Source of the DNA: Candidatus Marinacidobacterium sp.
GTDB lineage: Bacteria; Acidobacteriota; Vicinamibacteria; Marinacidobacterales; Marinacidobacteraceae
Length of the DNA: 64,000 nt
Reading direction: 5' to 3'
NCBI GenBank assembly: GCA_965243415.1
Contig: OZ251549.1
Coordinates: 2,555,632 to 2,619,631 of the forward strand
Shown here: positions 5,173-55,698 of the stretch, piece by piece
Layout: each line of letters begins with the position of its first letter
How positions within the stretch are numbered: position 1 is the first letter of the stretch
Made by a program: the position numbers and the translations under genes
The notes under the pieces: generated by a model
The model's input: only the letters and a program-made list of their open reading frames with translations
Databases searched by the model: none
What the model was told of the DNA's origin: nothing

Positions 5173-5258
5173 GCCGAAGTGGTGGAATGGAAGACACGTG
5201 CGCTTGAGGGGCGTATGGGATCAGTCCCGTGGGGGTTCGAATCCCCCCTTCGGCACCA
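5173..5258 (+). tRNA. tRNA-Leu (anticodon GAG), encoded CCA
   Basis: Manual fold: acceptor GCCGAAG/CTTCGGC; D-arm GTGG..CAC; anticodon stem TGCGC/GCGTA with loop TTGAGGG (anticodon GAG); long variable arm; T-arm GGGGG-TTCGAAT-CCCCC; discriminator A plus CCA. Confidence 0.85.
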
Positions 5259-8714: not shown

Positions 8715-8740
8715 GGCGGCGCCTCCCGGGCGGGCTCCCG

Positions 8741-9151
8741 CTAGCGCGGGTCGGGGGCCGGGGACTCGGGCTCTGCGCCCGGCGCGGCCTCGCCGCCCTC
8801 CGGCTCGGGTTCGGCGGCGGGGGTCGTCTCGCCCGCTTCCTCGGCCTCGTCCGGGGCGGGGGTGGTCGCGGCGGGGAGGGGAACGCCGCCGGTCGCCTCG
8901 TCCACCACCGTCTGCTGGCCGGCTTCGGAGCCGATGTAGCCGAGCAGGAGCGAGGTCACCATGAAGATCGCGGCGCAGACGGCGGTCACCCGGGTGAGCA
9001 GGGTGGCGGTGCCGCGCGCGCCGAAGGCCGCCTGGGTGCCGGCGCCGCCGAAGGCGCTGGCGAGGTCCTGTCCCTTCCCCTGCTGGGTCAGCACCACCAG
9101 GATGAGGAAGACGCAGACCAGGACATGGAAGACGGTCAGGAGGATGGTCAT
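8741..9151 (-). CDS. secG: preprotein translocase subunit SecG
   Basis: MTILLTVFHVLVCVFLILVVLTQQGKGQDLASAFGGAGTQAAFGARG matches the SecG signature (hydrophobic helix, QxGKG, AFGGG), followed by an acidic Pro-rich tail. ATG verified at 9151. Confidence 0.85.
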   Translation of the reverse strand: MTILLTVFHVLVCVFLILVVLTQQGKGQDLASAFGGAGTQAAFGARGTATLLTRVTAVCAAIFMVTSLLLGYIGSEAGQQTVVDEATGGVPLPAATTPAPDEAEEAGETTPAAEPEPEGGEAAPGAEPESPAPDPR

Positions 9152-13599: not shown

Positions 13600-13850
13600 C
13601 CTCCCGGCCTCCAACACACGGCTTCAGGTTTTCGGCTGTCGGGCCTTCCGGCGGACCGGACGAAGAGGGAACCGGGTGCGAATCCCGGACGGCCCACGCC
13701 ACTGTGATCGGAATGCCCGACCCGGGCCGCTCCGCTTCGGCGGGACGGCGCCCACTCCCGGCGGTCGCCGGGGGGAAGGGGGGAACGGCGGGAGGCCTGT
13801 CGCTGCCGCAGCGACGAGGCGTCCGTTCCGTGAGTCAGGAGACCTGCCCG
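13600..13850 (+). ncRNA. cobalamin (AdoCbl) riboswitch
   Basis: AAGAGGGAACCGGGTGCGAATCCCGGACGGCCCACGCCACTGTGA carries the B12-box core (GGGAA-C-GGTG-AA-TCC...GCC-CACGCCACTGT). Downstream are GGGAAGG and AGTCAGGAGACCTGCC 3' elements. It lies directly upstream of a TonB-dependent receptor and a cobalamin adenosyltransferase gene. Confidence 0.8.
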
Positions 13851-13895
13851 GAGCCCCGAACCGCGCGATCTCTTCGCTGGGAAGGATGGTTCTCC

Positions 13896-29892: not shown

Positions 29893-30960
29893 CTAGTGGA
29901 CCGTAGCGGGAGTTCGGATAGTGATCCGCCGAGAAACATCAGAGTACGTCCACTTGTAGGGCCGGGCGACCTTGTTGTGCTCACGGATGAAGCGAAGGAT
30001 CTTCCGCTCCAGATCCGCAACCGAGGTGAAGATGCCGCGGGCCAGAACATCCCGCTTCAGCTTCGAGAACCACAGTTCGATCTGGTTCAACCACGACGAG
30101 TAGGTCGGCGTGTAGTGGATGTGGAAGTTCGGCTGGGCCGCCACGAAGGCTTTGACCGCCTTCGTCTTGTGGACCGAGAGGTTGTCTGCGATCACGTGGA
30201 TCTCCCGGCCCGGCGGCTGGCTCGCCACGATCTCACCGAGAAAGTCGAGGAACGAGGCTCCGTTGACCCGTTCCACCGTCTTCCCGTGAACCACACCGGT
30301 CTGCGTCTCCAGGGCCGCGATCAGCGACCGGGTGCCATGCCGGTAGTACTCGAAGCCGTGGCGCTCGGCTCGGCCCGGGGACATCGGAAGCACCGGCACC
30401 GTCCGTTCCAGGGCCTGGATCGCCGTCTTCTCGTCCACACTGAAGACGGCTGCGTTCTCCGGAGGGTTCAGATACAGGCCGATGACATCGGCCGCCTTCC
30501 GCTCGAAGTCCGGGTCCTTCGACGCCAGATAGTTCCTCTTCGAGTGCGGCTGGAGGTTCGCGCTCGTCCACACCCGGTGCACCAGGGTGTGGCTGACGCC
30601 GAGGTGTCGCGCCAGGCGCCGCGTGCTCCAGTGCGTGGATCCATCCGGCGGCTTCTCCCGGGTCGTCGCCAGGACCTTCGCCTCCATCTCCGGTGTCTGA
30701 ACCGTCCTCGGCGACCCCGGCGCCCTCCGCGAGGCCAGCGCCGGCACCCGACCTTCCCGGAAGCGCTTTCCCCACTTGTTCACGAAGGCGGGCGTGCAAT
30801 CCAACTTGTTCTGGATCACGGACCACGGCTTCCCCGAGGCGAGCAGGAGAATCACCCGGGCGCGCCGGGCGTCTTCCGCTCTCACGGCGCGAGACTGGAC
30901 GCGCCGGTTGAGCTCGCGTCGTTCCGGTGGTGACAGGATGATGGGATCGCGTCTCCGCAT
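29893..30960 (-). CDS. IS630-family transposase (HTH plus DDE_3)
   Basis: MRRRDPIILSPPERRELNRRVQS...WSVIQNKLDCTPAFVNKWGKRF is the HTH. The DDE region carries VFSVDEKT, IHVIADNLSVHKT and SSWLNQIELWFS. The stop codon TAG is formed by the TA duplication plus the flanking base. Confidence 0.85.
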   Translation of the reverse strand: MRRRDPIILSPPERRELNRRVQSRAVRAEDARRARVILLLASGKPWSVIQNKLDCTPAFVNKWGKRFREGRVPALASRRAPGSPRTVQTPEMEAKVLATTREKPPDGSTHWSTRRLARHLGVSHTLVHRVWTSANLQPHSKRNYLASKDPDFERKAADVIGLYLNPPENAAVFSVDEKTAIQALERTVPVLPMSPGRAERHGFEYYRHGTRSLIAALETQTGVVHGKTVERVNGASFLDFLGEIVASQPPGREIHVIADNLSVHKTKAVKAFVAAQPNFHIHYTPTYSSWLNQIELWFSKLKRDVLARGIFTSVADLERKILRFIREHNKVARPYKWTYSDVSRRITIRTPATVH

Positions 30961-31001
30961 GGGAGAAGCATACCAGTATTCCATATGTTGTTACGATCCA
31001 C
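29896..31001. mobile_element. IS630-family insertion sequence (~1.1 kb) with ~16-bp terminal inverted repeats and TA target duplication inside a CTAG site
   Basis: Left end is TA|GTGGACCGTAGC; right end is GTTACGATCCAC|TA, with flanks ...gatgc / gccggggg that rebuild a CTAG target. It contains one intact transposase ORF. Confidence 0.75.
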
Positions 31002-34910: not shown

Positions 34911-36882
34911 CGCGGCCGAAGTTCCAGAGCGGTGAGGCCACAGAACCGTTGTAGTTCTTGGGGTGCGGGGCATTTCCGGAGTTCCGGCTCTGGCTACGAC
35001 AGGGCGGAGACGCCGAGGAGGTCGAAGGCCCGGCTCTGGACCGGGGTGAGATCGGTGATCTGATCGAAGGTGTGCTCGGTGCCGGGGAAGCGCATGGTCA
35101 ACCGGCTGAGGGCGCCGAGGTTCCGAAGCAGCGTGGCGTAGGAGTGCAGGGCCAGCCCGTCTTCGGTCTTGCGGGCGGCGGTCTTGGCCCGGGTCTGGGG
35201 CGAACGGACCGCGGGCGCCACCACCGAGGAACGGGCGGCCCGGGCGGCGGCCGGGTCTTCTTCCTGGAAGAGGAGCGGAGCCAGGCGGCGGCGAAGGTGC
35301 CATTCCAGGTGGTAGGCCAGCATCCGCAGGAAGAAGTGCGCCCGCACCCGGTCCGGGCGCCGGTGGTGGATGGGGCGCACCTGCAGGGAGAAGGTCTTGA
35401 AGCAGCGGAAGGCCGTTTCCACCACGCCCAGCCGTTTGTAGGCGGCCACGGCCCGGGGGCCGTCGAGGTCCGCTTCGGGCACATTGGTGCGCACCACATA
35501 GAAGCCGTCGAGGTCCGCTTCGGCAGCAATACGCTCCTCGCGGCGCCGGTAGGCGAAGTGTCCGCGCCCGGTCTCGATCTCGAAGAACTTGCGCGTCCGG
35601 TAGCGGTCCAGGATGCGGGTGGAACGCTCGATGATGGCCCTTTCGCTGCGCAGCGGCGAACTGGCCCGCCGGGTAGCTTCGACCAGTTTCTCCAGGCCCG
35701 CCTCGGTGGCCGCCAACAACTCTTCCCGCCGGCGCCGGCGATCGCCCGCCGTCCGGGGGTTGCGGCAAACGACCAGTCGTTCTCCCGGGAACTCCGGCGA
35801 CCGCACTTCCGCCAGATCCCGCTCCTCGAACAGCGACGGCTGCACCGTCCCGCCGCGGAACAACTCCCGGATGTCGGCGCGGCGCAGCGCGGTGATCCAC
35901 GAAAGCCCTTCCAAACCGATCAGGTCCTCCCGGATCCGGGCGTCGGTCAGCATCCCCCGGTCCCCCACCAGCACCACCCGCCGCAGGCCGAACCGCTCCC
36001 GCACCTTCTCCACCTGCGCCGAGAGCGTCTTCGGATCGGCGGTGTTCCCCTCGAACACCTCCACCGCCACCGGGCACCCTTCCTCGGAGCACAGCACCCC
36101 GAACACCACCTGCAGCGTCCCGCGCTTGCCGTCCCGGCTGTAACCCCGCGCCGCCAGCGGGCAGCGGCGGCCGGTGAACCAGCTGGAGCTCACGTCGTAG
36201 AGGACGATCGAACCTTCGCTCAGGTGTTTGCGCGCCAGCCGGGTCTCGACGGCGGCCTGGCGCCGTCCCAGCCAGTCCAGGGCGGCGTAGAGGTCGTTCT
36301 CGTCCACGCGGCCCAGGTCGAGCAGCGAGCCCAGGGTGGAGGTGGCGGTCGGGGGGTTCAGGGTTCGGGCGGTGGCCAGTTTGGGGAGCGGATCGAGGGC
36401 GCTGGCGACGATGAGGGCCACCGCCAGGTCGCGTTCCCGGGAGCGTCGGGCGGCGAGGGTCCGGTCGAGGCCCAACCGGCGCAGCGTTCCGAGGGCGGCG
36501 GCGGCGTGGCCGTGGGGGAGGGAGCGTTCGGAGCGCAGGGCCAAGCCGGCGGGGACCAAGTCTTCGCCGCGGAGGGCCCGGGCGATGACCTCGATGAGGT
36601 AGGGCGAGAGGTGGGTGATGTTGCCGAAGGTGCGGTGCTTGACCTTCGGGCCTTCGCGGAAGGAGCGTCGGAGGAGGACGGAGGTGTAGGTCTTCCCGTT
36701 CTGCCTGCTCTTGATCCTGGCCACATGTCCGGGGCTCTTCCTGCGGGGCATTTCGGGGGATTTTCGCAGGGAATGGGGGCGATGTCAAGCATATTACTGG
36801 CTACAAAATGACGCCGGGATCGGGCGGAAACCGATGGCGCCCAACGGCTTGAGGCCATTTCCCGGCTGGAACTTCGGACGCG
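34911..36882. mobile_element. IS1634-family insertion sequence (~1.97 kb) bounded by ~22-bp inverted repeats
   Basis: Left arm is cgcggccgaagttccagagcgg at 34911. Reverse complement of the right arm at 36861 is cgcgtccgaagttccagccggg (19/22). It encloses a 585-aa transposase. No clear target duplication resolved. Confidence 0.65.
34994..36751 (-). CDS. IS1634-family (IS4-related) DDE transposase
   Basis: 585 aa starting MPRRKSPGHVARIKSRQNGKTYTS. Contains GLRRVVLVGDRGM, DGFYVVRTN and HFFLRMLAYHLEWHLRRRL, the family-typical blocks. Confidence 0.85.
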   Translation of the reverse strand: MPRRKSPGHVARIKSRQNGKTYTSVLLRRSFREGPKVKHRTFGNITHLSPYLIEVIARALRGEDLVPAGLALRSERSLPHGHAAAALGTLRRLGLDRTLAARRSRERDLAVALIVASALDPLPKLATARTLNPPTATSTLGSLLDLGRVDENDLYAALDWLGRRQAAVETRLARKHLSEGSIVLYDVSSSWFTGRRCPLAARGYSRDGKRGTLQVVFGVLCSEEGCPVAVEVFEGNTADPKTLSAQVEKVRERFGLRRVVLVGDRGMLTDARIREDLIGLEGLSWITALRRADIRELFRGGTVQPSLFEERDLAEVRSPEFPGERLVVCRNPRTAGDRRRRREELLAATEAGLEKLVEATRRASSPLRSERAIIERSTRILDRYRTRKFFEIETGRGHFAYRRREERIAAEADLDGFYVVRTNVPEADLDGPRAVAAYKRLGVVETAFRCFKTFSLQVRPIHHRRPDRVRAHFFLRMLAYHLEWHLRRRLAPLLFQEEDPAAARAARSSVVAPAVRSPQTRAKTAARKTEDGLALHSYATLLRNLGALSRLTMRFPGTEHTFDQITDLTPVQSRAFDLLGVSALS

Positions 36883-36949
36883 GACAGCGCGCCGGCGGAG
36901 CCGGGTGTCGGCGCCGGTGGCCGGAGAAGCTCGATCGCTGCCGGGACCG

Positions 36950-37645
36950 GGTGTCGATCGAGTCCCGAACCGGGCGTCGGTCGAAGCCGCCGGGAGTGGC
37001 CTCGGTCGAAACCGTGCCGGAGTCGGGGAGCGGGCCCGGGTCGAACGGGGCGGGGGGTGGTGGTCGAGGGTCGGGCGGGGGCGTTCGTCGAGCGGGGACC
37101 GAAGCGGGGCGGGCGCCGCTCGAAGCCCGCTCGGGCGCGTTCGGCGCCATCGGTCGAAGCCATCGGTCGAAGCCGGGAACCTCGGGTCGACCGGGGCGGG
37201 GGGTGCCGGTCGAAGGTCGGGCGGAGGGCGTTCGTCGAGCGGGGACCGAAGTCGGGGCGGGCGCCGCTCGAATCCCGGTCGTTCGCGTTCGGCGCCAACG
37301 GTCGAAGCCATCGGTCGAAGCCATCGGTCGAAGCGGGGAGGCTCGGTCGAACGGGGCGGGGGCGTGACGGTAGAAGGTCGGGCGGGGGCGTTCGTCGAGC
37401 GGGGGCCGAAGTCGGGGCAGGCGCCGCTCGAATCCCGGTCGTTCGCGTTCGGCGCCAACGGTCGAAGCCATCGGTCGAAGCCATCGGTCGAAGTCGGGAG
37501 CCTCGGTCGAACGGGGCGGGGGCGTGACGGTCGAAGGCGGGGCGGGGGCGTTCGCCGGGCGGGGACCGAAGTGGGGGCGGGCGCCGCCCGAAGCCCGGTC
37601 GTTCGCGGTCGGCGCCGACAGTCAGCCATCGGTCGAAGCCGGGGT
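36950..37645. repeat. ~175-bp tandem repeat x ~4 (with internal ggtcgaagccatc sub-repeats) directly abutting the IS1634 right end and upstream of the S9 peptidase gene
   Basis: Unit ggcgccaacggtcgaagccatcggtcgaagccatcggtcgaagcggggag...ggcgttcgtcgagcggggaccgaagtcggggcgggcgccgctcgaatcccggtcgttcgcgttc recurs at ~37140, 37290 and 37470, plus a diverged copy at 36950. Overlapping ORFs on both strands are repetitive low-complexity artefacts. Confidence 0.85.
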
Positions 37646-37700
37646 CTTTGTTGAAGCCGAAGGCCGCCGGGGGGAGAATCCGCAGCGCAGGAGGGCTTCC

Positions 37701-39812
37701 ATGCTCCGACTCCGTTCCTCTTCCGTCCCCGTCCGCCTCCGCCGCCTCGCCGCCGGGTTTGCGGCGCTGCCCGCCGCCGTCGGCCTCGCCGTCGCCGCCG
37801 CTTCCCCGGCCCCGGCCCAGGAGAAGCGGTCCATGAGCATCGTCGAGATGATCGACATTCCCGGCGTCGGCAGCCCCCGCCTCTCCCCGGACGGCTCCCA
37901 GATCCTCTACACCCGCTCCGACACCGACTGGAAGAAGAACGGCCGCACCACCCACCTCCACCGCATCGAAGCCGACGGCAGCGGCGCGGTGCAGTTGACG
38001 AACGGCGAACACGGCGAATCCCACCCCCGCTGGTCGCCGGACGGCTCCCGCGTCGCCTTCCTCGCCCGCCGCGGCGAGAGCCCGTTCACCCAGATCTTCG
38101 TCATGCGCAACCGCGGCGGGGAAGCGGCCCCGCTCACGGAGCACGAGAGTTCGGTGCAGTCCTTCGAATTCTCCCCGGACGGCGATTCCATCTTCTTCGT
38201 CGCCCCCGATCCGAAGACCCCCGAAGAGAAGAAGAAGGACGACCTGCAGGACGATGTCTTCGCCTTCGACGAGGACTACAAACAGCGCCACCTCTGGAAG
38301 ATCGCCGCGGATTCGGAGTCCGGCGAGGCCGAGCGCATCACCGAAGGCGACTACTCGATCGTCGGCTTCCGCCTCTCCGACGACGGCGCCCGCATCGCCC
38401 ATTCCCGCGCCCCCTCGCCGCTCTACGACAACCGCGACGAAGGCGAAGTCTGGATCATGGACGCGGACGGCGGCAACGCGCTGCAACTCACCGACAACAC
38501 CGTCTCCGAACGCGGCGCCCAACTCTCCCCCGACGGCGGCACGGTGCTCTTCCTCTCCGATTCGAGCACCGACTTCGAGACCTACTTCAACGACAACATA
38601 TTCCTGGTCCCGGCGACCGGCGGCCCCCACCGGATGCTCTACGAAGCCATGCCCCACGAAGTGCAGGCGGCGACCTGGGCCCCCGACGGCTCCCTCTATT
38701 TCACCGCGAACACCGGCGTCCGCTCCCAACTCTTCCACGCCGGCGTGGACGACGCGGAACCCCGCGCCCTGACGAGCGGCGACCATACCCTCACCGGCTG
38801 GAGTTTCCGCGCCTCTGCCGGCGAACATGTCTTCGGTATCAACCGGCGGGAGAACGCCGGCGATATCCACCGCCTCCCGGCGAACGGCGGCGAACCGGTC
38901 GAGGTCACGAGCGTCTTCGACTACCTCGAAGAAACCTTCGTCCTGCCGATCCAGAAGGCGGTCCGCTGGCCGGGCGAGGACGGCGTGGAAGTCGAAGGCC
39001 TCCTCTTCCTCCCGCACGACCACGAAGAGGGCCGGCGCTACCCCCTCGTCGTCCAGACCCACGGCGGCCCGGCGGCCTCGGACAAGTTCTCCTACGGACG
39101 GTGGAGCAGTTACCCCCAGGTCCTCACCGGGCGCGGCTACGCGGTGTTCAAGCCCAACTACCGGGGCAGCACCGGCTACGGCGACGACTTCCTCCGCGAC
39201 ATGGTGGGCCACTACTTCCACCAGGCCCATCTCGATGTGATGACCGGCGTGGACTACCTGATCGCCGAAGGAATCGTGGACGGCGACCGCATGGCCAAGA
39301 TGGGCTGGAGCGGCGGCGGCCACATGACGAACAAGATCATCACCCACACCGACCGCTTCAAGGCGGCCAGTTCCGGCGCCGGGGCGGTGAACTGGATCTC
39401 CATGTACGGCCAGAGCGATGTGCGCATCTACCGCACGCCCTGGTTCGGCGGCACCCCCTGGCAGGAGGACGCCCCCATAGACACCTACTGGGGCCACTCC
39501 CCGCTCAAGGACATCTACAGGGTCACCACCCCGACCATCGTCCTCGTCGGCGAGAACGATGTCCGCGTCCCGCCCCCGCAGTCCGTCGAACTCTACCGGG
39601 CGCTCAAGACGAACGGCGTGGAGACCCACCTCTACATCGCCCCCCGGGAACCCCACGGCTGGCGCGAACTCCGCCATGAACTCTTCAAGGTGAATGTGGA
39701 GATCGACTGGTTCGAACGCCATGTCCGCGGAATGGACTACGAATGGGAGACCGCCCCCGAAACCGGCGACGACGACGAGGAAGCCACGGAAACCGACGAA
39801 AACGGCCACTGA
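37701..39812 (+). CDS. S9 family peptidase (prolyl oligopeptidase/acylaminoacyl-peptidase type; beta-propeller plus alpha/beta hydrolase)
   Basis: Start MLRLRSSS with SD GGAGGG and a signal peptide. Propeller repeats (SPDGSQILY, SPDGSRVAF, SPDGDSIFF). Catalytic domain with GWSGGG (Ser nucleophile), plus downstream GENDVRVP (Asp) and REPHGW (His). Confidence 0.85.
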   Translation: MLRLRSSSVPVRLRRLAAGFAALPAAVGLAVAAASPAPAQEKRSMSIVEMIDIPGVGSPRLSPDGSQILYTRSDTDWKKNGRTTHLHRIEADGSGAVQLTNGEHGESHPRWSPDGSRVAFLARRGESPFTQIFVMRNRGGEAAPLTEHESSVQSFEFSPDGDSIFFVAPDPKTPEEKKKDDLQDDVFAFDEDYKQRHLWKIAADSESGEAERITEGDYSIVGFRLSDDGARIAHSRAPSPLYDNRDEGEVWIMDADGGNALQLTDNTVSERGAQLSPDGGTVLFLSDSSTDFETYFNDNIFLVPATGGPHRMLYEAMPHEVQAATWAPDGSLYFTANTGVRSQLFHAGVDDAEPRALTSGDHTLTGWSFRASAGEHVFGINRRENAGDIHRLPANGGEPVEVTSVFDYLEETFVLPIQKAVRWPGEDGVEVEGLLFLPHDHEEGRRYPLVVQTHGGPAASDKFSYGRWSSYPQVLTGRGYAVFKPNYRGSTGYGDDFLRDMVGHYFHQAHLDVMTGVDYLIAEGIVDGDRMAKMGWSGGGHMTNKIITHTDRFKAASSGAGAVNWISMYGQSDVRIYRTPWFGGTPWQEDAPIDTYWGHSPLKDIYRVTTPTIVLVGENDVRVPPPQSVELYRALKTNGVETHLYIAPREPHGWRELRHELFKVNVEIDWFERHVRGMDYEWETAPETGDDDEEATETDENGH

Positions 39813-39916
39813 CCGCCTGACCTCCCACCGGCCGGCGCCCCTCCCGCGCCGGCCGACCCCTCTCGACCTCGCGCCCCGACCCGGGAACGCTCCCCCCGAC
39901 CGCCGGCCAGCGCGCC

Positions 39917-40541
39917 TTATTCGGACCCCGGCTCGCCGACCGTCCCCCGGATGACCTCCCGCGCCCGCCGAACGAACGCCCGCAACGAGTGGTCGTTCCT
40001 CCCGGCCCGGTGCAGATCCATCTCGGCCACGACCTTCGGCGCGAACCCGCTGTCGTCGGAGCGACCGACCGGGTAGCGGCCCTTCCGAAGCGCATCCGCC
40101 AGGAGTTTCTGGTAGTGGCCGCGCTCGCACTTCTCCTGCCCGAGAGTCGGAGCGTGCCCAGGACCGGGCCGAGGCTCGAGGAGTCCGCCGGATACCACCG
40201 CTCGATATGCGGATCGGGACACGCCGCGACCAGCCGGTCGGCGAACGCCGCACCCGTGGTGTCCTCGATCACCTGGCGAGAGGCCGAGAAGGTGGAGCAG
40301 TTGCCGTCGATCGCCACGACGACCAGGTCCGGGGTGGGCTCGTCGGCCGGGACCGTAGATCGGGTCGTCCGGTACATCCCGTACTCGCGGAGCGCGACGC
40401 CGTGGCCACCACGCGCAGAGATCACCCTGATCCGCGCCGCTGCCCCCGCCTCTTCGCACAGGCCATGGAGCATCGGCGTGAGGAACAGTTGGTGCGCGCG
40501 GTCCTCGGCGAACACGACCACCTGGAGGCGGTTACTCGTTG
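39917..40541 (-). pseudogene. DUF4276-like protein, copy A, disrupted by a 1-nt frameshift near 40150 (or sequencing error in a G run)
   Basis: N-terminal frame gives VVVFAEDRAHQLFLTPMLHGLCEE...DLVVVAIDGNCSTF...AACPDPHIERWYPADSSSLGPVLG. The C-terminal part continues in another frame: TLGQEKCERGHYQKLLADALRKG...FAPKVVAEMDLHRAGRNDHSLRAFVRRAREVIRG. Both halves align to the intact paralog at 42505..43125. Start is GTG ~40541 or ATG 40587. Confidence 0.6.
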
Positions 40542-41794
40542 ATGTAGCCACGCAGCAACAGACCCTCGAACAATCCCTCTTCCCCACGGTTGGACAGAGC
40601 CTGCACGAGTTTGGGATCGTTCAACAGCGCGTCGGGAATCTCGAAGACCTCGACGGAGGTGTCCGACTCCGTCTCCCCGTTCGGGCGCCGCACATTCAGA
40701 AGCACGATATCGTCAGGATCGTCGGCCTTCCGCTGTTCCTGAAGCACGGTCGCCACGAACAGGGGTGAGTGTGTCGCGACGATGACCTGCCGTCTTCCGT
40801 GTTCGGCCAAGGACAGGAGGAGGTGGGCGAGATCTTCGACCCGGCGCGGATGAATTCCGTTCTCCGGTTCCTCGATGGTCACCAGACCGCCGACCTGCCA
40901 CGGATTCACGGACATGGCGCAGAACGCCAGGGCCCGGAGCGTGCCGTCGGACAGAAGGTGGGTCGAATAATCGATGCCTCCCTGGCGTGCGATGATGTTG
41001 AGCGTGCCGCGCATCGTGTCGAGGTCCATCGTGAGATCCTCGATGGAAGGAACGAGACCGCGGAGTTTCAGCACGAGAGACTCGTAGTAGTGCGGATGGG
41101 AGGCCCTGAGTTTGTACAGGAACGGCGCGATGGTCTGTCCATTCACGCCGATGTCGCGAACATCCGCCGGCCCGGTGGAGGCGCGCATGAGTGTCCTCGG
41201 TTCGAGGGCGTAGGGCCGCCAGGTTCGGAGTTCGGAGCGCAGCGCATCGAGGCGGTCGTAGCCGGGCCCGGACACACTGAGATCGGACACGATGGAGTGG
41301 CTGAGTCCGATCTCTTCGTATCGGGATGGGCGCGAACGCCGAGTCGAACGGACCAGGAGGCTCCCGTTCCGACTCTCGATGGTCGCCCTTGCGCCGCGGG
41401 GTCGCGTCTGGCAAAAGTACTCGTCGTCGACGACCGGAAATCCGGATGGCTGTGCGAGGCGGGTGGCGAGGCGGTAACGGAAAGAGCGCGGATCGGTCGC
41501 GATGTCGGCCTCGAGGCAAAAGGTCGGGTCGGGACAGTCCGGCTGCAACAGGGCCGGGAGCCCTCCGGAGGGGAAGGTGAAGGCCTCGAAAGGGTGTCCG
41601 CGGATGGGGAGGGGGCCGTCGAGAGCGTCGTGGATGGTCCGGGCGCTCGGCACCGCGGCCAGGAAGTTGACGGCTTCGAGGATGTTGCTCTTCCCGGCGG
41701 CGTTCGGCCCGAAGAGGACCGTCAGGCACCGGCCGGGCTCGATCGTGACTTCGCGGAGCGACTTGAAGCCACGGACGGTCAGGCGTTCGAGCAT
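40532..41794 (-). CDS. AAA_21/AAA_15-type ABC ATPase (SMC/RecF-like P-loop; OLD/Gabija/Septu-ATPase-like), copy A
   Basis: MLERLTVRGFKSLREVTIEPGRCLTVLFGPNAAGKSNILEAV is Walker A. LSDGTLRALAF is the signature motif, IEEPENGIHP Walker B/D-loop, and VATHSP the H-loop. 420 aa. Confidence 0.8.
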   Translation of the reverse strand: MLERLTVRGFKSLREVTIEPGRCLTVLFGPNAAGKSNILEAVNFLAAVPSARTIHDALDGPLPIRGHPFEAFTFPSGGLPALLQPDCPDPTFCLEADIATDPRSFRYRLATRLAQPSGFPVVDDEYFCQTRPRGARATIESRNGSLLVRSTRRSRPSRYEEIGLSHSIVSDLSVSGPGYDRLDALRSELRTWRPYALEPRTLMRASTGPADVRDIGVNGQTIAPFLYKLRASHPHYYESLVLKLRGLVPSIEDLTMDLDTMRGTLNIIARQGGIDYSTHLLSDGTLRALAFCAMSVNPWQVGGLVTIEEPENGIHPRRVEDLAHLLLSLAEHGRRQVIVATHSPLFVATVLQEQRKADDPDDIVLLNVRRPNGETESDTSVEVFEIPDALLNDPKLVQALSNRGEEGLFEGLLLRGYINE

Positions 41795-42267
41795 GGCAGT
41801 GCTTCAGGCATTGGATTCGCCGGATGGTAGCGCCGGCCCGGCCGGCGGAGGCGATGGCCGACTTCGGCGGGCGGCCGGCGACTCGGGGAGGCCTGGCTGC
41901 CGTGCGCCTCGGCAGCGATGGCGACAGCGGCCCGCTGTCGGGTACGCCGGGGAGGTGCGCGGCGCCACGGGAGCGGGAGATCCGGAGGCGCGTCCGGCCC
42001 TCCGCAATGGGCCGGCGGAGGCCCGAATCACGGGGCGACCCGTCGGCAAGTGCCATCGGCGTGCTCGGACCGCTACGGAGGGTCCCGAGGTGGCGCCGGC
42101 GGGGAACCTCGGACCGCAGGGCGCAGCGGTCGGAAACCGGGTGGCCGAGGTGGACCTTTGCCGCGGCGAGTCGACGCAGAGGGGCCATCACCCGGAGCGA
42201 CCGCTCGATGCGGCGAGTTCCGGCGCCGGAAGGCTGGGGCGCGATCCCGGGTACGGCCGGAGCGATA

Positions 42268-42440
42268 ACGAACGGCGTGGAAATCCACCTCCCCATCGCC
42301 CCGCGCAAACCCCGTGACCTCCGCCACGAACTCCTCGAAGTGATCGTGGAGATCGATTGCCTCGTCCGTGGGATGGACGAGGAATGGGAATCGCCCCCGA
42401 GTCCGACGACGCGGTCACCACCGAAAACCGCTGCCGGCCG
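42268..42440 (+). pseudogene. degenerate duplicated remnant of the 3' end of the S9 peptidase gene
   Basis: Translates NGVEIHLPIAPRKPRDLRHELLEVIVEIDCLVRGMDEEWESPP. The peptidase C-terminus at 39605-39800 is NGVETHLYIAPREPHGWRELRHELFKVNVEIDWFERHVRGMDYEWETAP. It marks the left edge of the duplicated module. Confidence 0.6.
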
Positions 42441-42504
42441 CCCGACCACTCCGGCCGGCGCCTCCGCGCCGGCCGGCCCGAATGAGCCGGGGTCGCTGAC
42501 CGGT

Positions 42505-43125
42505 TCAGTCCGCCGACAGCGATCGCTGCCGGAGGAACTTCTTTCTCAGGTCCGTGAGGAACGCTCCGAGCGACCGGCAGTTCTTGCCCGCCCGGTACAG
42601 CCGCATCGCCGCCACGACTTCGGGTGCGAACTCCCGTCCGTGCAGCAGCGTCGGCGGATGGCCGGCGCCCCGGATCGTGTCGGCCAGGATCTTCTTGTAG
42701 TGGGCTCGCTCGCACTTCTGACGACCGAGGGAAGGCGCCCTGCCGACGACGGCGGCGAACGACTGCGGATCGGCCATGAGCCATCTCTCGATGTGGGGGT
42801 CCGGGCACGCCGCGACCAACCGGGGCGCGAAGGCCGGCAGCACGATCTCCTCGATACTCTGCTTCGTCTTGGCGAAGGTCGCACAGTTCCCGTCGAGCGC
42901 GACGACCACGAGGTCGAACGGCGCCACCGCCGCCGGGAACAACGCTGCCGTCTCCTGCCACGCCCGGAACTGGCTGAGCGCCCGCGGGCGCCCGCCCTCC
43001 GCCGACAGGATCTGCGTGGCGACCGACACCTCCAGCGATTCCGCGACCCGACCCACCAGCGGAACCAGGAATGCGGCGTGGGCGGAGTCTTCGGCGAAGA
43101 CGGCGACCCGAATCGGATCAGGCAT
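42505..43125 (-). CDS. DUF4276-like protein, copy B (intact, 206 aa)
   Basis: MPDPIRVAVFAEDSAHAAFLVPLV...DLVVVALDGNCATF...AACPDPHIERWLMADP...GRQKCERAHYKKILADTIRG...FAPEVVAAMRLYRAGKNCRSLGAFLTDLRK. The conserved acidic N-terminus, DGNC and CPDPHIERW blocks are shared with copy A. Family name is from recollection of DUF4276 and not verified. Confidence 0.65.
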   Translation of the reverse strand: MPDPIRVAVFAEDSAHAAFLVPLVGRVAESLEVSVATQILSAEGGRPRALSQFRAWQETAALFPAAVAPFDLVVVALDGNCATFAKTKQSIEEIVLPAFAPRLVAACPDPHIERWLMADPQSFAAVVGRAPSLGRQKCERAHYKKILADTIRGAGHPPTLLHGREFAPEVVAAMRLYRAGKNCRSLGAFLTDLRKKFLRQRSLSAD

Positions 43126-43255
43126 CGAGGATTCCCCGGAGGATCAGGGATTCGACGACCCCCTGCTCTCCCCGGTCCGCCAGCGCGCCGGCGATCCGCT
43201 CGTCCTCGAACAGGGCGTCCGGAGGATCGAACGGCTTGACGGTCGTTCGATCGTC

Positions 43256-44368
43256 CTACGACCCGACCTGGAGGAGCCGTACGCCGTCGGGGTCGTCACT
43301 CCGGCGTTTCGCCCGGACGATCCGGCCCACGAAGAGCGGAGAATGCGTGGTGACGATGACCTGGCGGTCCTGCTGCTCGCCGAACGACAGGAGGAGGTCG
43401 GCGATCTGCTCCAGCCGACGCGGATGCACTCCGTTCTCCGGTTCCTCGATGCCGACGAGTCCCTCCTCGATCCACGGATTCCTGGTGAGGGCGCACAGCG
43501 CGAGGATCCGCAGTGTCCCTTCGGACACGATCCGGGAGGAGTACTCGATCCCGTCCTGCCGGAAGAGGAGATCGAGGTTTCCTCTCCGTTCGTTCAGGGC
43601 CAGGGTGAAGGCGTCCATGCCGGGTACGAGTTGCCGGAGCATTCGGACGACGGAGGCGTAGTACTTCGGCTTCGCGGCATGCATTCGGTACAGATACGAA
43701 CCGATGAATTCGCCGTGAACGCCGATGTCGAGGAAGTCCCCCGGAAACTGTTCGGCCCGCATACGGAACTGCGGTTCGACGGCATAGATTCGCCAGCGCT
43801 CGAACTCCCTGCGCAAGCGATCCAGTGCTTCGTATCCGGCGCCGGAGTAGCGGCGATCGGACAGGATCGAACCGCGGGCGCCGACGGATTCCCGTTTGGG
43901 TTCGCGCGATCCCTTCCGGCGTATGAGGATCTGACCATCGCGCGTCCGGATGCTGGGGAAACGGTCGGGGTCGGGCCGCGTCTCTGCCAGGTATTCGTCG
44001 GCGACTCCGATGGCGCCGATACGCGGGTCCAGCCGTGCAGAGAGGCGATACTCGTACGCGGTGGCACTCGTCGAGATGGCGGCTTCCAGGGTGAAGGACG
44101 GGCTGGCCCGGTCCGCTTTCAGAAGCGCGGGAAGACCCTCGTCCGGATAGGAAAAACACTCGGCGGGGTGGCCGCGGACCGGGGAATTCGCACCCAACGC
44201 TTCCTGGAGGGTGGGGGCGCGACTCATGACGGACAACACCTGGGCCGCCTCCAGGAGGTTGCTCTTCCCGGCGGCGTTCGGCCCGAAGAGGACCGTGAGG
44301 TGTCTTCCGGGCTCGATCGTGACCTCGCGGAGCGACTTGAAGCCGCGGACGGTCAGGCGTTCGAGCAT
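43256..44368 (-). CDS. AAA_21/AAA_15-type ABC ATPase, copy B
   Basis: Internal ATG gives MLERLTVRGFKSLREVTIEPGRHLTVLFGPNAAGKSNLLEAA, then SEGTLRILAL, IEEPENGVHP and VTTHSP. Roughly 50-60% identical to copy A. The ORF-track N-terminal 40 aa are low-complexity. Confidence 0.8.
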   Translation of the reverse strand: MLERLTVRGFKSLREVTIEPGRHLTVLFGPNAAGKSNLLEAAQVLSVMSRAPTLQEALGANSPVRGHPAECFSYPDEGLPALLKADRASPSFTLEAAISTSATAYEYRLSARLDPRIGAIGVADEYLAETRPDPDRFPSIRTRDGQILIRRKGSREPKRESVGARGSILSDRRYSGAGYEALDRLRREFERWRIYAVEPQFRMRAEQFPGDFLDIGVHGEFIGSYLYRMHAAKPKYYASVVRMLRQLVPGMDAFTLALNERRGNLDLLFRQDGIEYSSRIVSEGTLRILALCALTRNPWIEEGLVGIEEPENGVHPRRLEQIADLLLSFGEQQDRQVIVTTHSPLFVGRIVRAKRRSDDPDGVRLLQVGS

Positions 44369-44405
44369 CGGGCAGCGCGTTCTCGACCGCAGGGTAGCCC
44401 GGGGG

Positions 44406-45581
44406 TCAGCGAGTGGTGGCGGGCGAAGCCAAGGCGGTTTCGGCGAGGCGGCGGGCGGCTTCGGGGAGGCCCTGGCCGCTCTGGACATTCGCGGTCAGCG
44501 CCACGGCGAGGCCGCGTTCGGGGAGGCGGAGGAGGTGGGTGGTGCCGCCGGTGGCGCCGCCGGAGTGGGAGATCCAGAGGCCCGCCGCGTCCTCGGCGAT
44601 CCGCCAGCCGAGACCGTACTCACTCAGCGTGCCGTCGGCGAGTTCCATCGGGGTCGTCATCCGGCCGTGGGTTTCGGCGGAGATGATCGCCCCGGCGTCC
44701 AGCGCCAGCGCGAACCGCACCAGGTCCGGCGCGGTGGAGATCATGCCGCCGCCGGCCCACTTGATGGAGAGGTCGGCGAAGGGCGCGTTCCGCACCCAGG
44801 GGGCGTCCTCCGACTTCACATACTGGCGGACGCGGTTCGGCACGATGTCGCCCTGGTGTTCGAGGTAGGTCGCCTCCATCCCGGAGGGCCCCCAGAGGTT
44901 GTCCTGCAGGTAGTCGTCGAAGGACTGCCCGGCGACGGACTCCACCATTCCGGCGAGCAGGTTGTAGGCGTAGGTCGAGTAGGAATACTGCGTTCCCGGC
45001 TCGAAGAGCAGCGGGTCGTCGCGGAAGATGGCGGTGCCCGCTTCCACGGTGTCGAAGTGGTCTTTCAGGTCGAACTCACCCTCGTTGTAGTGGCGGATCC
45101 CGGAGGTATGCGTCATCAGGTGGCGCACGGTGACCGGGTATTCCTTCTCCGGGAACGACGGGAAGTACTCCTGGATCGTCCGGTCTATGTCGAGGACCCC
45201 CTGTTCGGCGAGGTGCATGATCGCGGTGGCGGCGATGGGCTTCGAGATGGAGGCGATCCGGTACACGCTGTCCGCGGTCGCCGGGACGCCGTTCTCGATG
45301 TCGGCGAGACCGGAGCCGCCGCTCCAGGTCAGCACGCCGTCCACCGCCACCGCGGCGGAGAGGCCCGGGCTGCCGGCGGCGTCGCGCGCTTCCTCGACGA
45401 TGGCGGCGAACTCCAGGTCGCGCTGGGCGGTCGGATCCGGCGCCGAACAGCCGACGACGCCCGCCGCGAAGAACGCCGCGAACGCGACCGACGGGAGGGA
45501 GAACGAGGCGAAGCCCCTCGTGGCGGCAGCGCGGGGAACGGCAGTGCGGGAAACGACGGGGCGAATCGGGAGAGCGGTCAT
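44406..45581 (-). CDS. serine hydrolase (class C beta-lactamase/esterase-like) lipoprotein
   Basis: Lipoprotein signal ...FFAAGVVGCSAP. SISK (S-x-x-K) in YRIASISKPIAATAI, a YSN-like YSTYAYN and HSGGATGG. Start ATG verified. ATGA overlap with the upstream dipeptidase stop. Confidence 0.85.
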   Translation of the reverse strand: MTALPIRPVVSRTAVPRAAATRGFASFSLPSVAFAAFFAAGVVGCSAPDPTAQRDLEFAAIVEEARDAAGSPGLSAAVAVDGVLTWSGGSGLADIENGVPATADSVYRIASISKPIAATAIMHLAEQGVLDIDRTIQEYFPSFPEKEYPVTVRHLMTHTSGIRHYNEGEFDLKDHFDTVEAGTAIFRDDPLLFEPGTQYSYSTYAYNLLAGMVESVAGQSFDDYLQDNLWGPSGMEATYLEHQGDIVPNRVRQYVKSEDAPWVRNAPFADLSIKWAGGGMISTAPDLVRFALALDAGAIISAETHGRMTTPMELADGTLSEYGLGWRIAEDAAGLWISHSGGATGGTTHLLRLPERGLAVALTANVQSGQGLPEAARRLAETALASPATTR

Positions 45582-47722
45582 CGGAAATGTCCTCCTGTGG
45601 CGGAAAGGCCGCCGGCGGGTTCGGGGGATGGTTCGGGCGGCGGGCGCGGGATTTCGGAATCGGGGAGAGGGACGGTCGCTGCGCCCCGGACGCGCTCGAA
45701 GTTGCCGCCGAGAACCGCGTCCACCTCGGCGTCGGCGAAACCGGCCTCGGCGAGCGCGGCGAAGTTCTCGTCCTCCCGGAGTCCGGCGCTGTGGGCGGAC
45801 CTGCCGCGCCGGTTGTTCCCGATCCGGATCCGGATGCTGCTGCCTCCGCGAGCGACAGTCCGCCGCACCGGTCGGGGGACGAAGGCGGCCACTGCGGGGA
45901 CCGGACCGCCGCCGACCCGGCCGCCGGCAGGTTCGGGGGATGGTTCGGGCGGCGGACGCTGGGTTTCGGATCCGGGGAGATGGGCGGTCGCCGCAGTCCA
46001 TACCCGCTCGAAGTTGCCCCCGAGGACGGCGTCCACCTCGGCGTCGGCGAAACCGGCTTCGGGGAGCGCGGCGGAGTTCTCGTCCTCCCCGAGTCCGGCC
46101 CCGTGGGCGGACCTGCCGCGCCGGTCGCTCCCGATCCCGATGCTGCTGCCTCCGCGAGCGACAGTCCGCCGCACCGGTCGGGGGACGAAAGCGGCCACTG
46201 CGGGGACCGGACCGCCGCCGACCCGGCCGCCGGCGGGTTCTGGGGATGGTTCGGGCGGCGGACGCCGGGTTTCGGATCCGGGGAGATGGGCGGTCGCCGC
46301 GGTCCACACCCGCTCGAAGTTCCCCCCGAGGACGGCATCCACCTCGGCGGCGGCGAAACCGGCCTCGGCGAGCGCCTCCGCGATGGCTTCGAAGTCCGCC
46401 TCGTCCCCGAACCCTTCGCTGTAGGCGGACATGCCCCGCAGGTCACTCCCGATCCCGGCGCTGCCCGGGCCGCCGAGATCGGTCACGCGCCGCACATGCC
46501 GGGCGAGGTCGGCCACCGTCGGAACCAGACCGGCATTCGGCCAGATCCCGAGGACGCCGCCGGCTTCGGCGATGGCCCGGATCTCCGGATCGCGCAGGTG
46601 CCGGTCGTGCTCGCGCAGCGCGAACGAACCGGTATGGCTGAACACCACCGGCGCGGTGGAGAGCGCCAGCGTGTCCCGGATCGTCTCCGGGTTCGCGTGC
46701 GCCAGGTCGAGGACGATCCCCAGCCGGTTGCACTCGCGCACCACCTCCCGACCGAACTCGGTGAGCCCGCCCGGCGTGTAGGGCCAGGTCTGGATGTGCC
46801 CCAGCCCGTTCGCCCGGAAGTGCACGAGTTGCAGCAGCGCGAGCCCCATTCCGTGGAGTTCCCGCAACCGCTCGATATCTCCTTCCAGCGAGTCCGCGCC
46901 TTCGACCGCCGGGAGGATCGCCAGCGCGCCGGCGTCCCGCGCCCGCCGGGCCTCCGCCGGCGTCCGGACGAAGACCGCGTTCGCCTCGGCGACGGTCCGG
47001 GTCAGCCGCTCGAACCGGTCGAGCGTGTAGGCCCAGGGTTCCCCCGGTTCCGGTCGGCGGTCGCCGGACTCGATCCTCGTTCCGTCACGCAGCACATAGC
47101 CGCCCCGGTAGGGAGTGTCGGTGCTGATCGTCGCCACGACAGCGTCCATGCCGCGGTCGAGATAGCGGGCGATCTCCTCGTCGCTGATCCGCGGCACATT
47201 CGCGCGGTGGAACCGGGACGGATGCGCGTGGATGTCCACCCGCAGCGGCCGTTCCCCGTCCTCCTGCCGCACCCCGGTGCGGTCCTCCGGGAGGACGGCC
47301 CCGACCGGCAGGCCCCGGTGCGCCGGCCCGCCCCCGGCAACGGGTATGGAGCGGGGCATGAAGGGGGGAATGAACGGGGAACCGAAAACGGAACGGGGCC
47401 GCCCCGAAGCAGGGTTCGAAGCAGGCCCCGGCACGACCACCGGAATGAAGGCGGAACCGAATGCGGAACCGCCGACCGAACCGCCCACGAAACCGATTTT
47501 CGTCGAGCCGCCGACCGCCGAACCGCCGGCTGACGAACCGCCCACTGACGAACCGATGGCCGCCGAGCCGCCGCCCGACGAACCGACCGCCGCCGAACCG
47601 ACCGCCCCGCCGAACCCCGCCGCCGCGCCGGCGGAAACCAGCAGGGCCCCGGCGAGCGCCGCCCGCCCACGCCTCCGCGACCCGAACCGCTGACGCCCGG
47701 CCGCCGGCCCTCCCCCCGACAC
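45578..47722 (-). CDS. membrane dipeptidase (peptidase M19) with candidate Tat signal, Gly/Ser-rich linker and triplicated C-terminal segment
   Basis: M19 core DIHAHPSRF, VHFRANGLG, LDLAHANPE, VFSHTGSFAL and IGSDLRG. Upstream in frame are RRRGRAALAGALLVSAGAAAG (Tat-like) and a GGS-rich linker. A GTG start is proposed at 47722. The 3' ~780 nt are three in-frame tandem copies of the last ~86 codons. Confidence 0.7.
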   Translation of the reverse strand: MSGGGPAAGRQRFGSRRRGRAALAGALLVSAGAAAGFGGAVGSAAVGSSGGGSAAIGSSVGGSSAGGSAVGGSTKIGFVGGSVGGSAFGSAFIPVVVPGPASNPASGRPRSVFGSPFIPPFMPRSIPVAGGGPAHRGLPVGAVLPEDRTGVRQEDGERPLRVDIHAHPSRFHRANVPRISDEEIARYLDRGMDAVVATISTDTPYRGGYVLRDGTRIESGDRRPEPGEPWAYTLDRFERLTRTVAEANAVFVRTPAEARRARDAGALAILPAVEGADSLEGDIERLRELHGMGLALLQLVHFRANGLGHIQTWPYTPGGLTEFGREVVRECNRLGIVLDLAHANPETIRDTLALSTAPVVFSHTGSFALREHDRHLRDPEIRAIAEAGGVLGIWPNAGLVPTVADLARHVRRVTDLGGPGSAGIGSDLRGMSAYSEGFGDEADFEAIAEALAEAGFAAAEVDAVLGGNFERVWTAATAHLPGSETRRPPPEPSPEPAGGRVGGGPVPAVAAFVPRPVRRTVARGGSSIGIGSDRRGRSAHGAGLGEDENSAALPEAGFADAEVDAVLGGNFERVWTAATAHLPGSETQRPPPEPSPEPAGGRVGGGPVPAVAAFVPRPVRRTVARGGSSIRIRIGNNRRGRSAHSAGLREDENFAALAEAGFADAEVDAVLGGNFERVRGAATVPLPDSEIPRPPPEPSPEPAGGLSATGGHFR
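45600..46400. repeat. ~258-bp tandem repeat x3 inside the 3' end of the M19 dipeptidase ORF
   Basis: Protein-level copies: ...EADFEAIAEALAEAGFAAAEVDAVLGGNFERVWTAATAHLPGSETRRPPPEPSPEPAGGRVGGGPVPAVAAFVPRPVRRTVARGGSS, then ...AGFADAEVDAVLGGNFERVWTAATAHLPGSETQRPPPEPSPEPAGG..., then ...AGFADAEVDAVLGGNFERVRGAATVPLPDSEIPRPPPEPSPEPAGG. DNA copies are ~90% identical. Confidence 0.8.
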
Positions 47723-54506: not shown

Positions 54507-54531
54507 TCGTGATTGATAGAATGCGATTCTA
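54507..54531. promoter_or_regulatory. AT-rich perfect palindrome ATAGAAT-GCG-ATTCTAT immediately upstream of the Fic gene start
   Basis: ttgatagaatgcgattctatcgatcATG, seen directly. Confidence 0.35.
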
Positions 54532-54537
54532 TCGATC

Positions 54538-55698
54538 ATGCGCTGGATCTGGCAGCGGCCGGAGTGGCCCCGGTTCCGTTGGGAAGCGTCGGCGATCACG
54601 CCCCTGGAGACCCGCTACCGACTGGCAGCCGAGCGCTCCCGGGGCGCCCGTTGGCATCTCGACGAGGCCGACCGCGCCGAACTCCGGGTCGAGTGGCTGA
54701 CGGACGAGGCGGTCGAGACCTCGGCGATCGAGGGGGAGACGCTCGACCGCGACTCGGTGCGATCCTCCCTCCGGAACCACTTCGGCCTGGCAGCCGACCG
54801 CCCGGGTTCCACCCCGGCCGAGACCGGCGCCGCCGACCTGATGGCCGCCCTCTACCGCGACTTCGCCCGGCCGCTGGACTTCGAGATGCTGTTCGACTGG
54901 CATCGCCGCCTCCTCCGCTGGCGCCCGGACCTGGCGGTCGTCGGAGCGTTCCGGGGCGGCCCGGAGCCGATGCGCGTCGTCTCCTCGGCGCCGCCCCCCT
55001 TCGAGGTCCACTACGAAGCGCCCCCGTCCGAGCGCGTCCCGGCGGAGATGGAGCGATTCGTGGCCGGGTACGAGCGCTCCGCGAGAGAAGGCCTCCCGCC
55101 GCTGACCTGGGCGGGCCTCGCCCACCTCGACTTCGTCTTCATCCACCCCTTCGAGGACGGGAACGGCCGCCTCGCCCGCGCCCTCTCCGAAAAGGCCCTC
55201 GCCCGCTCCTCGGGACAGCCGAGCCTGATCGCCCTCTCCCGGACGATCTCCCGCCGCCGCCGCGCCTACTACGACGCCCTGGAACGGGCGAACCGCTCGC
55301 TGGACTTCACCGACTGGCTCCGCTTCTTCGGCGAGACGGTGCTGGCAGCGCAGCGGTGGAGCGAGCGCCGGCTGATCCGCACCCTCGACCAGGCCCGGAT
55401 GTTCCGCCGACTCGGCGACCGCCTGAACGACCGCCAGCGGAAGGCGCTCCGCCGCCTCTTCCGGGCGGAACCGGAAGGATTCGAGGGCGGCCTCAGCGCC
55501 GGCAACTACCGCCGCATCACCGGCGCCATCCCGCCCACGGCGACCCGCGACCTGGCCGACCTCGTGGCGCTCGGCGCCCTCCGCCGCACCGGCGCCCGCC
55601 GCCACACCCGCTACTTCCTCGACCTGCCCCCGTTCCCGGACGAACCGGGTGCCGGCCCTCTCGGCGAGGGCCAGACCGGGGCCGCCGCGCCGTCGTGA
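54538..55698 (+). CDS. Fic/DOC family protein (AMPylation-type fido domain)
   Basis: HPFEDGNGRLAR matches the Fic motif HPFx(D/E)GNGR. Confidence 0.85.
   Translation: MRWIWQRPEWPRFRWEASAITPLETRYRLAAERSRGARWHLDEADRAELRVEWLTDEAVETSAIEGETLDRDSVRSSLRNHFGLAADRPGSTPAETGAADLMAALYRDFARPLDFEMLFDWHRRLLRWRPDLAVVGAFRGGPEPMRVVSSAPPPFEVHYEAPPSERVPAEMERFVAGYERSAREGLPPLTWAGLAHLDFVFIHPFEDGNGRLARALSEKALARSSGQPSLIALSRTISRRRRAYYDALERANRSLDFTDWLRFFGETVLAAQRWSERRLIRTLDQARMFRRLGDRLNDRQRKALRRLFRAEPEGFEGGLSAGNYRRITGAIPPTATRDLADLVALGALRRTGARRHTRYFLDLPPFPDEPGAGPLGEGQTGAAAPS

Follow-up and report, generated by a model that had tools for sequence, protein, structure and literature searches.

We describe a tandem array of two gene modules in a 64,000-nucleotide (nt) stretch of the genome of Candidatus Marinacidobacterium sp. 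(contig OZ251549.1, positions 2,555,632 to 2,619,631; hereafter the window), in which each module pairs an ABC-type ATPase with a small DUF4276-like partner protein. Our analysis indicates that the region is probably a HEC-01-type array that was duplicated in situ, has exchanged one module as a cassette and is damaged in both modules in this genome, with a role in phage defence that would follow by analogy with related systems. On sequence grounds the gene pair is no new system, being already catalogued as the PADLOC candidate HEC-01; the interest lies in the dynamics of the locus. For comparison we used seven related loci (L001, L003, L005 and L007-L010), comprising six PANK22-1 metagenome contigs and one metagenome-assembled genome, Candidatus Marinacidobacterium sp. 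OZ242011.1.

Assignment of the two modules to HEC-01

The two modules lie about 2.58 kb apart on the minus strand, and each consists of an ATPase gene followed by a gene for a partner of about 206 amino acids (aa) (Table 1). The GC content of the window is about 72%, and codon-position GC backs the minus-strand genes of the array; the opposite-strand open reading frames across it are the usual artefacts of high-GC DNA. Both ATPases match Pfam AAA_21 (ATPase A, 7.5e-29; ATPase B, 6.5e-31), and their best PADLOC matches are to the model PDLC04184 of HEC-01A (1.6e-44 and 6.3e-46, respectively), and several further HEC-01A models match at 1e-28 to 1e-34. In ATPase A the Walker A (GPNAAGKS), signature (LSDGT), Walker B (IEEPE) and H-loop (THSP) motifs are all intact. 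Its AF2 model (pLDDT, predicted local distance difference test, 89.1) adopts an ABC head fold, for which Foldseek returned the Rad50/SMC heads and PtuA of Septu and retron systems as the closest solved folds (E ~1e-13).

Partner B scored 28.1 bits against Pfam DUF4276 (PF14103; gathering cut-off 30.2), with positions 2-191 of the 192 profile positions covered. The same profile is matched by 59 of 59 partner homologues (E<=0.01, best 3.2e-12), and the closest relatives, P0001-P0004, have precomputed PF14103 matches. In PADLOC, HEC-01B was the only defence family found for partner B (PDLC04210, 1.2e-5; PDLC04194, 1.1e-4), a weak but specific match that recurs in 36 of the 59 close homologues (best 1.7e-7). 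The predicted model of partner B (pLDDT 92.8) shows the three-layer alpha/beta fold of Toprim domains, with BpOLD (6nk8) and TsOLD (6p74) as named structural matches; when PDB sequences were searched with a profile of the partner family, no relative was found, the single match (E 1.3) being spurious. Strand beta-1 of the partner comprises residues 5-11 and is directly followed by the near-invariant E12 and the invariant D13, strand beta-3 is followed by D78-G/A-N80, of which D78 is invariant and N80 at least 90% conserved family-wide, and, together with these residues, E113, W115, D119 and the helical K144 are conserved across homologues down to 25% identity. The canonical Toprim DxD is absent, the second Asp being replaced by Asn (D-x-N). 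We consider the partner to be a DUF4276-like protein with a predicted OLD-type Toprim fold and an OLD-like acidic site of the D-x-N form, a putative nuclease.

These results largely agree with a first-pass annotation made from the DNA letters, which had proposed an AAA_21/AAA_15-type ABC ATPase coupled to a small, DUF4276-like protein resembling a metal-dependent nuclease, in an OLD/Gabija-like logic split over two genes. Pfam and the partner fold support the pairing, the 59 homologues and the OLD-type fold support the family, and the Toprim partner is indeed encoded separately. Of the pattern on which that proposal was built, an acidic strand with D-G-N-C and CPDPH blocks, the acidic residues stood up, whereas the Cys residues of both blocks turned out to be conserved only within the close subfamily. 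Likewise, C81, C107 and C138 were considered as a Zn or disulphide site but rejected as a family feature, as these residues are invariant only in that subfamily and replaced in more distant members. A PADLOC search of the region, which the same annotation had suggested, returned HEC-01A for both ATPases and HEC-01B for partner B. Its view that the pairing is not characterised as a defence system under a known name did not hold, given that PADLOC has the HEC-01 entry and that DUF4276 has been described both as belonging to Toprim and as the Mad4 protein of MADS (PMC12065111).

HEC-01 was defined as an ABC ATPase together with a TOPRIM protein embedded in Hma systems (Payne et al., bioRxiv 10.1101/2024.01.29.577857). 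The window pair shares its two-gene architecture and gene order, the best hidden Markov model matches of both proteins are HEC-01A and HEC-01B, and relatives in other phyla lie between HmaB and HmaC, like the defining examples. It differs in the weak partner match (E 1e-5), in the D-x-N of its subfamily in place of DxD, and in that the window copies lie between peptidase genes, outside any Hma system, tandemly arrayed and damaged. Hma embedding is, however, the context in which HEC-01 was discovered and not a rule for its detection.

Other pairings of this kind fit less well. MADS3-4 has been grouped with OLD, Gabija, PARIS and AbiL as ABC ATPase plus TOPRIM systems (PMC11464382), and Mad3-Mad4 resembles the window modules in combining an ABC ATPase with Mad4, reportedly a DUF4276 homologue. 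The window ATPases match the mad3 model at 1e-25 and 9e-22, but their HEC-01A matches are about 20 orders of magnitude stronger; no mad4 match was obtained at E<=0.01, and neither mad1, mad2 or other mad genes nor a methyltransferase was found in the window. PARIS couples the ABC ATPase AriA to AriB, a DUF4435 Toprim nuclease, whereas the window partner is of the DUF4276 type and gave no AriB or DUF4435 match in PADLOC or Pfam at E<=0.01; the matches of the window ATPases to AriA models reflect the generic PF13304 profile. OLD and GajA are alike in combining an ABC ATPase with a Toprim domain that has a catalytic helical region, but there the domains are fused, whereas here two separate, overlapping genes encode them. 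Gabija also needs the GajB helicase and class 2 OLD/Gabija systems have an adjacent UvrD-like helicase, whereas no helicase gene lies within the window array.

Duplication in situ with relics of both flanking genes

Direct-repeat pairs between modules A and B are spaced 2574-2659 nt apart, and the 710-nt spacer between the modules contains degenerate remnants of both genes that border the array. The first derives from the 3' end of the S9 peptidase gene and aligns with 39609-39859 in blastn (68.5% over 251 nt, E 1e-24); its translation can be aligned as well, with internal deletions, and L001 has the same relic. The second derives from the 3' end of the beta-lactamase gene; blastn aligns it with 44439-44654 (69% over 216 nt, E 2e-17), and tblastn gives 36% identity over 78 aa (E 3e-6). 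Since relics of both flanking gene ends are present in the spacer, the duplicated unit must have carried both gene ends. Because these relics sit between the modules, the array is shown, at the level of sequence comparison, to have arisen in situ by duplication of a segment of about 2.6 kb, which extended from the beta-lactamase 3' end to the S9 peptidase 3' end, and the relic pair corresponds to the junction expected of a tandem duplication. A tandem duplication that included a flanking gene end, with a degenerate S9 peptidase 3' end before copy B, had been proposed in the first-pass annotation and is borne out by the repeat spacing and the S9 relic; the beta-lactamase relic, which had escaped that annotation together with an in-frame TAG in ATPase B, extends it.

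The two modules have diverged considerably, with 51% aa identity between the ATPases, at the lower end of an earlier estimate of about 50-60%, and 43% between the partners, and synonymous sites are saturated between subtypes (51-62% aa identity). Modules A and B are thereby as diverged as homologues from other phyla, and the partner tree does not unite them, both of which would fit a second module that was acquired horizontally and landed beside the first without any duplication. We regard such an event as extremely improbable, as all 15 of the 15 ATPases of the lineage fall into one clade among 86 sequences in 100 of 100 neighbour-joining bootstraps (98 of 100 when residues 1-45 are left out), relics of both flanking gene ends separate the copies, and the subfamily had no match on sequenced plasmids or phages in a tblastn search with partner B. 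The monophyly of the lineage ATPases implies that all subtypes derive from duplication within the lineage, and independent horizontal acquisition of module A was discarded on account of this monophyly and the junction relics.

Divergence between the duplicated ATPases is uneven. Their 5' ends are alike (41675-41794 versus 44249-44368; 82% nt identity between A and B over the first 120-170 nt), and paralogous ATPases share 84-90% pairwise identity over residues 1-40 lineage-wide; the middle of the protein (residues 41-280) is diverged as much as between phyla. This suggests gene conversion of the ATPase 5' end or its use as a shared recombination anchor, in addition to a fast-evolving insert.

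Cassette exchange at a fixed locus

The related loci share the gene order M20 - PGA_cap - M19 - beta-lactamase / array / S9 - epimerase - PBP1. The beta-lactamase border is present in all of them and the S9 border gene is syntenic in L001, L005 and L007-L010, and we place the locus as a fixed site in the core genome of a lineage related to Candidatus Marinacidobacterium (Acidobacteriota). L003 has lost the S9 peptidase gene except for 223 nt of the 3' end, which persist as a relic (86.5% identity; 10722-10941) after the partner gene, followed by unrelated genes (VTT domain, aldehyde dehydrogenase), which represents another rearrangement at the same border.

At this one site the arrays hold one, two or three modules of six subtypes: B in L003 and L005, B-A1 in the window, B-A2 in L001, where all four genes are intact, C-A2 in L009, C-B-A1 in L007 and A3-C' in L008 and L010. 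Partner subtypes mirror ATPase subtypes, indicating co-divergence of the two genes. When the window was compared with L001 in sliding 100-nt segments, both border genes (beta-lactamase and S9), module B and most of the spacer were 96-100% identical, and identity dropped over a segment that contains most of module A (allelic cassette in Table 1). Between A1 and A2 the aa identity is 62% for the ATPase and 68% for the partner, and A1 (window, L007) and A2 (L001, L009) form distinct clades. Module A is thus best described as a swapped allelic cassette in a near-identical background.

The locus provides a natural strain series for the evolution of ABC-ATPase/Toprim modules in situ, displaying an old duplication with visible junction relics, six co-diverging subtypes, cassette replacement and repeated inactivation, mostly of one subtype.

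Damage to both modules as sequenced

Partner A lacks one nt of a G-run (GGG at 40157-40159 of the window, GGGG in the 97% identical L007), which shifts the frame, so that tblastn returns two high-scoring segment pairs in different frames; after repair, the translation is 68% identical to the intact partner A of L001. In addition, the canonical ATG start of this gene is changed to ACG in subtype A1 (window 40534-40560; L007 11250-11280), which leaves only GTG starts, while the canonical ATG overlapping the ATPase stop is present in A2, A3 and B. As the ACG is common to the window and L007, the start-codon change predates the frameshift.

ATPase B, which is otherwise 97% identical to an intact 416-aa orthologue in L001, is interrupted by a premature TAG (Table 1). 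Past this codon the frame runs for 45 more conserved codons to a TGA; in the 45-residue tail, G416 is invariant across the family and several other residues are nearly so. TAG serves as a normal stop in the window, where it terminates 3 of the 15 other genes. The ATG of partner B overlaps the original TGA stop of ATPase B in ATGCCTGA, with a gene overlap of 8 nt, and we take this stop/start overlap as a sign of translational coupling. As read from the gene models, the TAG removes the conserved C-terminal tail of ATPase B and uncouples partner B from the overlap. With the premature stop in ATPase B and the frameshift in partner A, neither module is intact as sequenced; each has one broken gene, and neither is expected to be functional. 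The 1-nt frameshift had been noticed in the first-pass annotation and is confirmed here, but its view that both copies have been retained does not apply to this genome.

Lesions are also found elsewhere in the lineage, namely a frameshift in ATPase A1 of L007, a truncation of partner A3 in L008 and a frameshift in partner A3 of L010. Damaged modules number four out of six for the A type, one out of five for the B type and none out of four for the C type, and the lesions are recurrent and independent, with most of them in A-type modules. We also considered that both modules are really intact, the TAG and the missing nucleotide being minority alleles or mistakes of assembly or sequencing. The position of the deletion in a G-run (GGGG to GGG) and the close relative L001 with four intact genes would accommodate this, but the nonsense change is a substitution at a strain-polymorphic codon (GAG, CAG, TAG) and other assemblies (L007, L008, L010) carry independent lesions, which makes decay a feature of the locus and the error explanation unlikely.

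Exactly one intact gene of each kind is left in the window, and the lesions could in principle be complementary, with a working hybrid of ATPase A and nuclease B. The homogenised 5' ends of the paralogous ATPases (84-90% identity over residues 1-40) are in line with such an exchange of partners. Against it, the partners co-diverge with their own ATPases, A and B partners are only 43% identical, and partner B, 131 nt past the premature stop, has lost translational coupling, so that we judge a functional hybrid very improbable. A broader conjecture, to which we give little credence, would treat the fixed locus as a diversified immune array, in which paralogous sensor ATPases of differing specificity are shuffled as cassettes among strains and nuclease genes are repeatedly knocked out owing to their cost, and in which the ATPases that survive may work with a non-cognate nuclease (here ATPase A with partner B) or act as decoys or regulators. 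If this were true, the D-x-N subfamily would constitute a mechanistically distinct branch of ABC-ATPase/Toprim immunity.

Distribution, proposed mechanism and a role in defence

The partner family comprises 876 clusters at 50% identity (E<=1e-3), and among GTDB species representatives it occurs in Acidobacteriota, Gemmatimonadota/Longimicrobiales, Spirochaetia, Latescibacterota and Planctomycetota, as well as in Verrucomicrobiota, Desulfobacterota, NC10/Methylomirabilota and others. Of 80 species-level loci from at least 10 phyla, 78 have an ATPase gene directly upstream of the partner; in the other two, less than 240 nt separate the partner start from the end of the contig. In 42 complete loci, the genes immediately beside the pair include HmaB (8 proteins), HmaC (4), mad2 (3) and prokaryotic Argonaute (pAgo; 3), and also type I restriction-modification (R-M) subunits and Schlafen/AlbA_2 proteins; these counts describe an association and carry no genomic background rate. 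A neighbourhood comparison had been recommended in the first-pass annotation, and it places homologous pairs elsewhere next to Hma, type I R-M and pAgo genes, again as an association.

Each module is an operon in which the gene of an ABC ATPase is translationally coupled to that of a DUF4276/Toprim-fold protein. By analogy with PARIS, OLD and Gabija, the ATPase, with its variable beta-rich insert and conserved nucleotide-binding core, may act as sensor and regulator that holds or licenses the Toprim nuclease; on a phage cue, the nuclease would be released or activated to attack nucleic acid, thereby stopping (aborting) infection. Across strains, the modules are exchanged as cassettes and often singly inactivated.

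A non-immune function, with the pair as a housekeeping or selfish ATPase-nuclease module (in DNA repair or as a toxin-antitoxin-like addiction module) that was duplicated by chance, could be argued from the core-genome flanks with their conserved synteny, from the Pfam label of AAA_21 ('putative AbiEii toxin') and from the failure of HEC-01 in its first test. On the other hand, housekeeping genes do not typically vary in copy number, occur as allelic cassettes or turn into pseudogenes so often, homologues lie within Hma, R-M and pAgo loci, and one HEC-01 representative, from a cold seep, gave E. coli B protection from at least one phage (PMC12881386). We consider a non-immune function to have only a slim chance of being correct.

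Several observations nevertheless weigh against a damaged HEC-01-type defence array formed by in-situ duplication. In the first published test, HEC-01 gave no protection in E. coli MG1655 (bioRxiv 10.1101/2024.01.29.577857). The score of partner B lies under the Pfam gathering threshold for DUF4276, and with D-x-N instead of DxD its catalysis is not assured. The array in the window is bordered by peptidase and cell-wall genes and not by defence or mobile genes. The partner phylogeny, from a short alignment, does not recover the lineage as monophyletic (12 of 100 bootstraps). Finally, the frameshift of partner A falls in a homopolymer and could be a sequencing error, the nonsense change of ATPase B being a substitution. 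On balance we hold the HEC-01-type array to be the likely explanation, and the intact modules of relatives, for example those of L001, are suited to tests of HEC-01 specificity, of sensing by the ATPase insert and of cleavage by a D-x-N Toprim protein.

Features of the array and its surroundings

The features of the array are listed in Table 1. In the window it is flanked by beta-lactamase, M19, S9 peptidase and PBP genes, and promoter, terminator, Rfam and tRNA scans yielded nothing informative within it.

Table 1. Coordinates of the array, its border genes and the associated relics and lesions in the window
Feature	Position	Strand	Description
Beta-lactamase-family gene	44406..45575	-	Left border of array, conserved; Pfam Beta-lactamase 4e-73
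ATPase B	44368..43118	-	ABC ATPase (AAA_21/AAA_15, HEC-01A-like); full frame of 416 codons with one in-frame TAG
Premature TAG in ATPase B	43256..43258	-	Codon 371; GAG in L001, CAG in L007
Partner B	43125..42505	-	206 aa, intact; DUF4276/HEC-01B-like protein of predicted Toprim fold
S9 peptidase 3'-end relic	42268-42479	+	In spacer between modules
Beta-lactamase 3'-end relic	41863-42062	-	In spacer between modules
Allelic cassette	~40050..41850	-	52-79% nt identity to L001, sharp boundaries
ATPase A (subtype A1)	41794..40532	-	420 aa, intact ABC ATPase
Partner A (subtype A1)	~40551..39917	-	DUF4276-like pseudogene
S9 prolyl-oligopeptidase-family gene	37524..39812	+	Convergent right border, conserved; Pfam Peptidase_S9 5e-45 and PD40

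Directly beside the array, in the 3' part of the M19 dipeptidase gene (45508-46464, minus strand), the C-terminal coding end is repeated as a unit of 306-312 nt in 2.5-3 tandem copies. The gene varies in length among related strains (400, 551, 636, 684, 712 and 774 aa), and together with the repeat this points to a second copy-number-variable tandem duplication next to the array. On the other side, the intergenic region upstream of the S9 peptidase gene (36900-37640) holds three or more copies of a tandem repeat of about 160 nt (91% match) with nested 13-nt GCCATCGGTCGAA repeats, and similar repeats occur in L001. Two transposase genes on the minus strand (34994-36784, DDE_Tnp_1; 29893-30990, DDE_3 with helix-turn-helix domains) break the otherwise conserved S9 - epimerase - PBP1 - LemA - TPM synteny, and L001, L007 and L009 have no called transposase at the equivalent positions.

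Further away, a Fic/DOC family gene with an N-terminal DUF4172 lies at 54520-55698 (plus strand), and a homologue is present near the locus in L008. Unrelated to the array, the window also carries a cobalamin riboswitch (13609-13865, 64.5 bits), tRNA-Leu(GAG) at 5173-5258 and tRNA-Pro(CGG) at 8735-8825.

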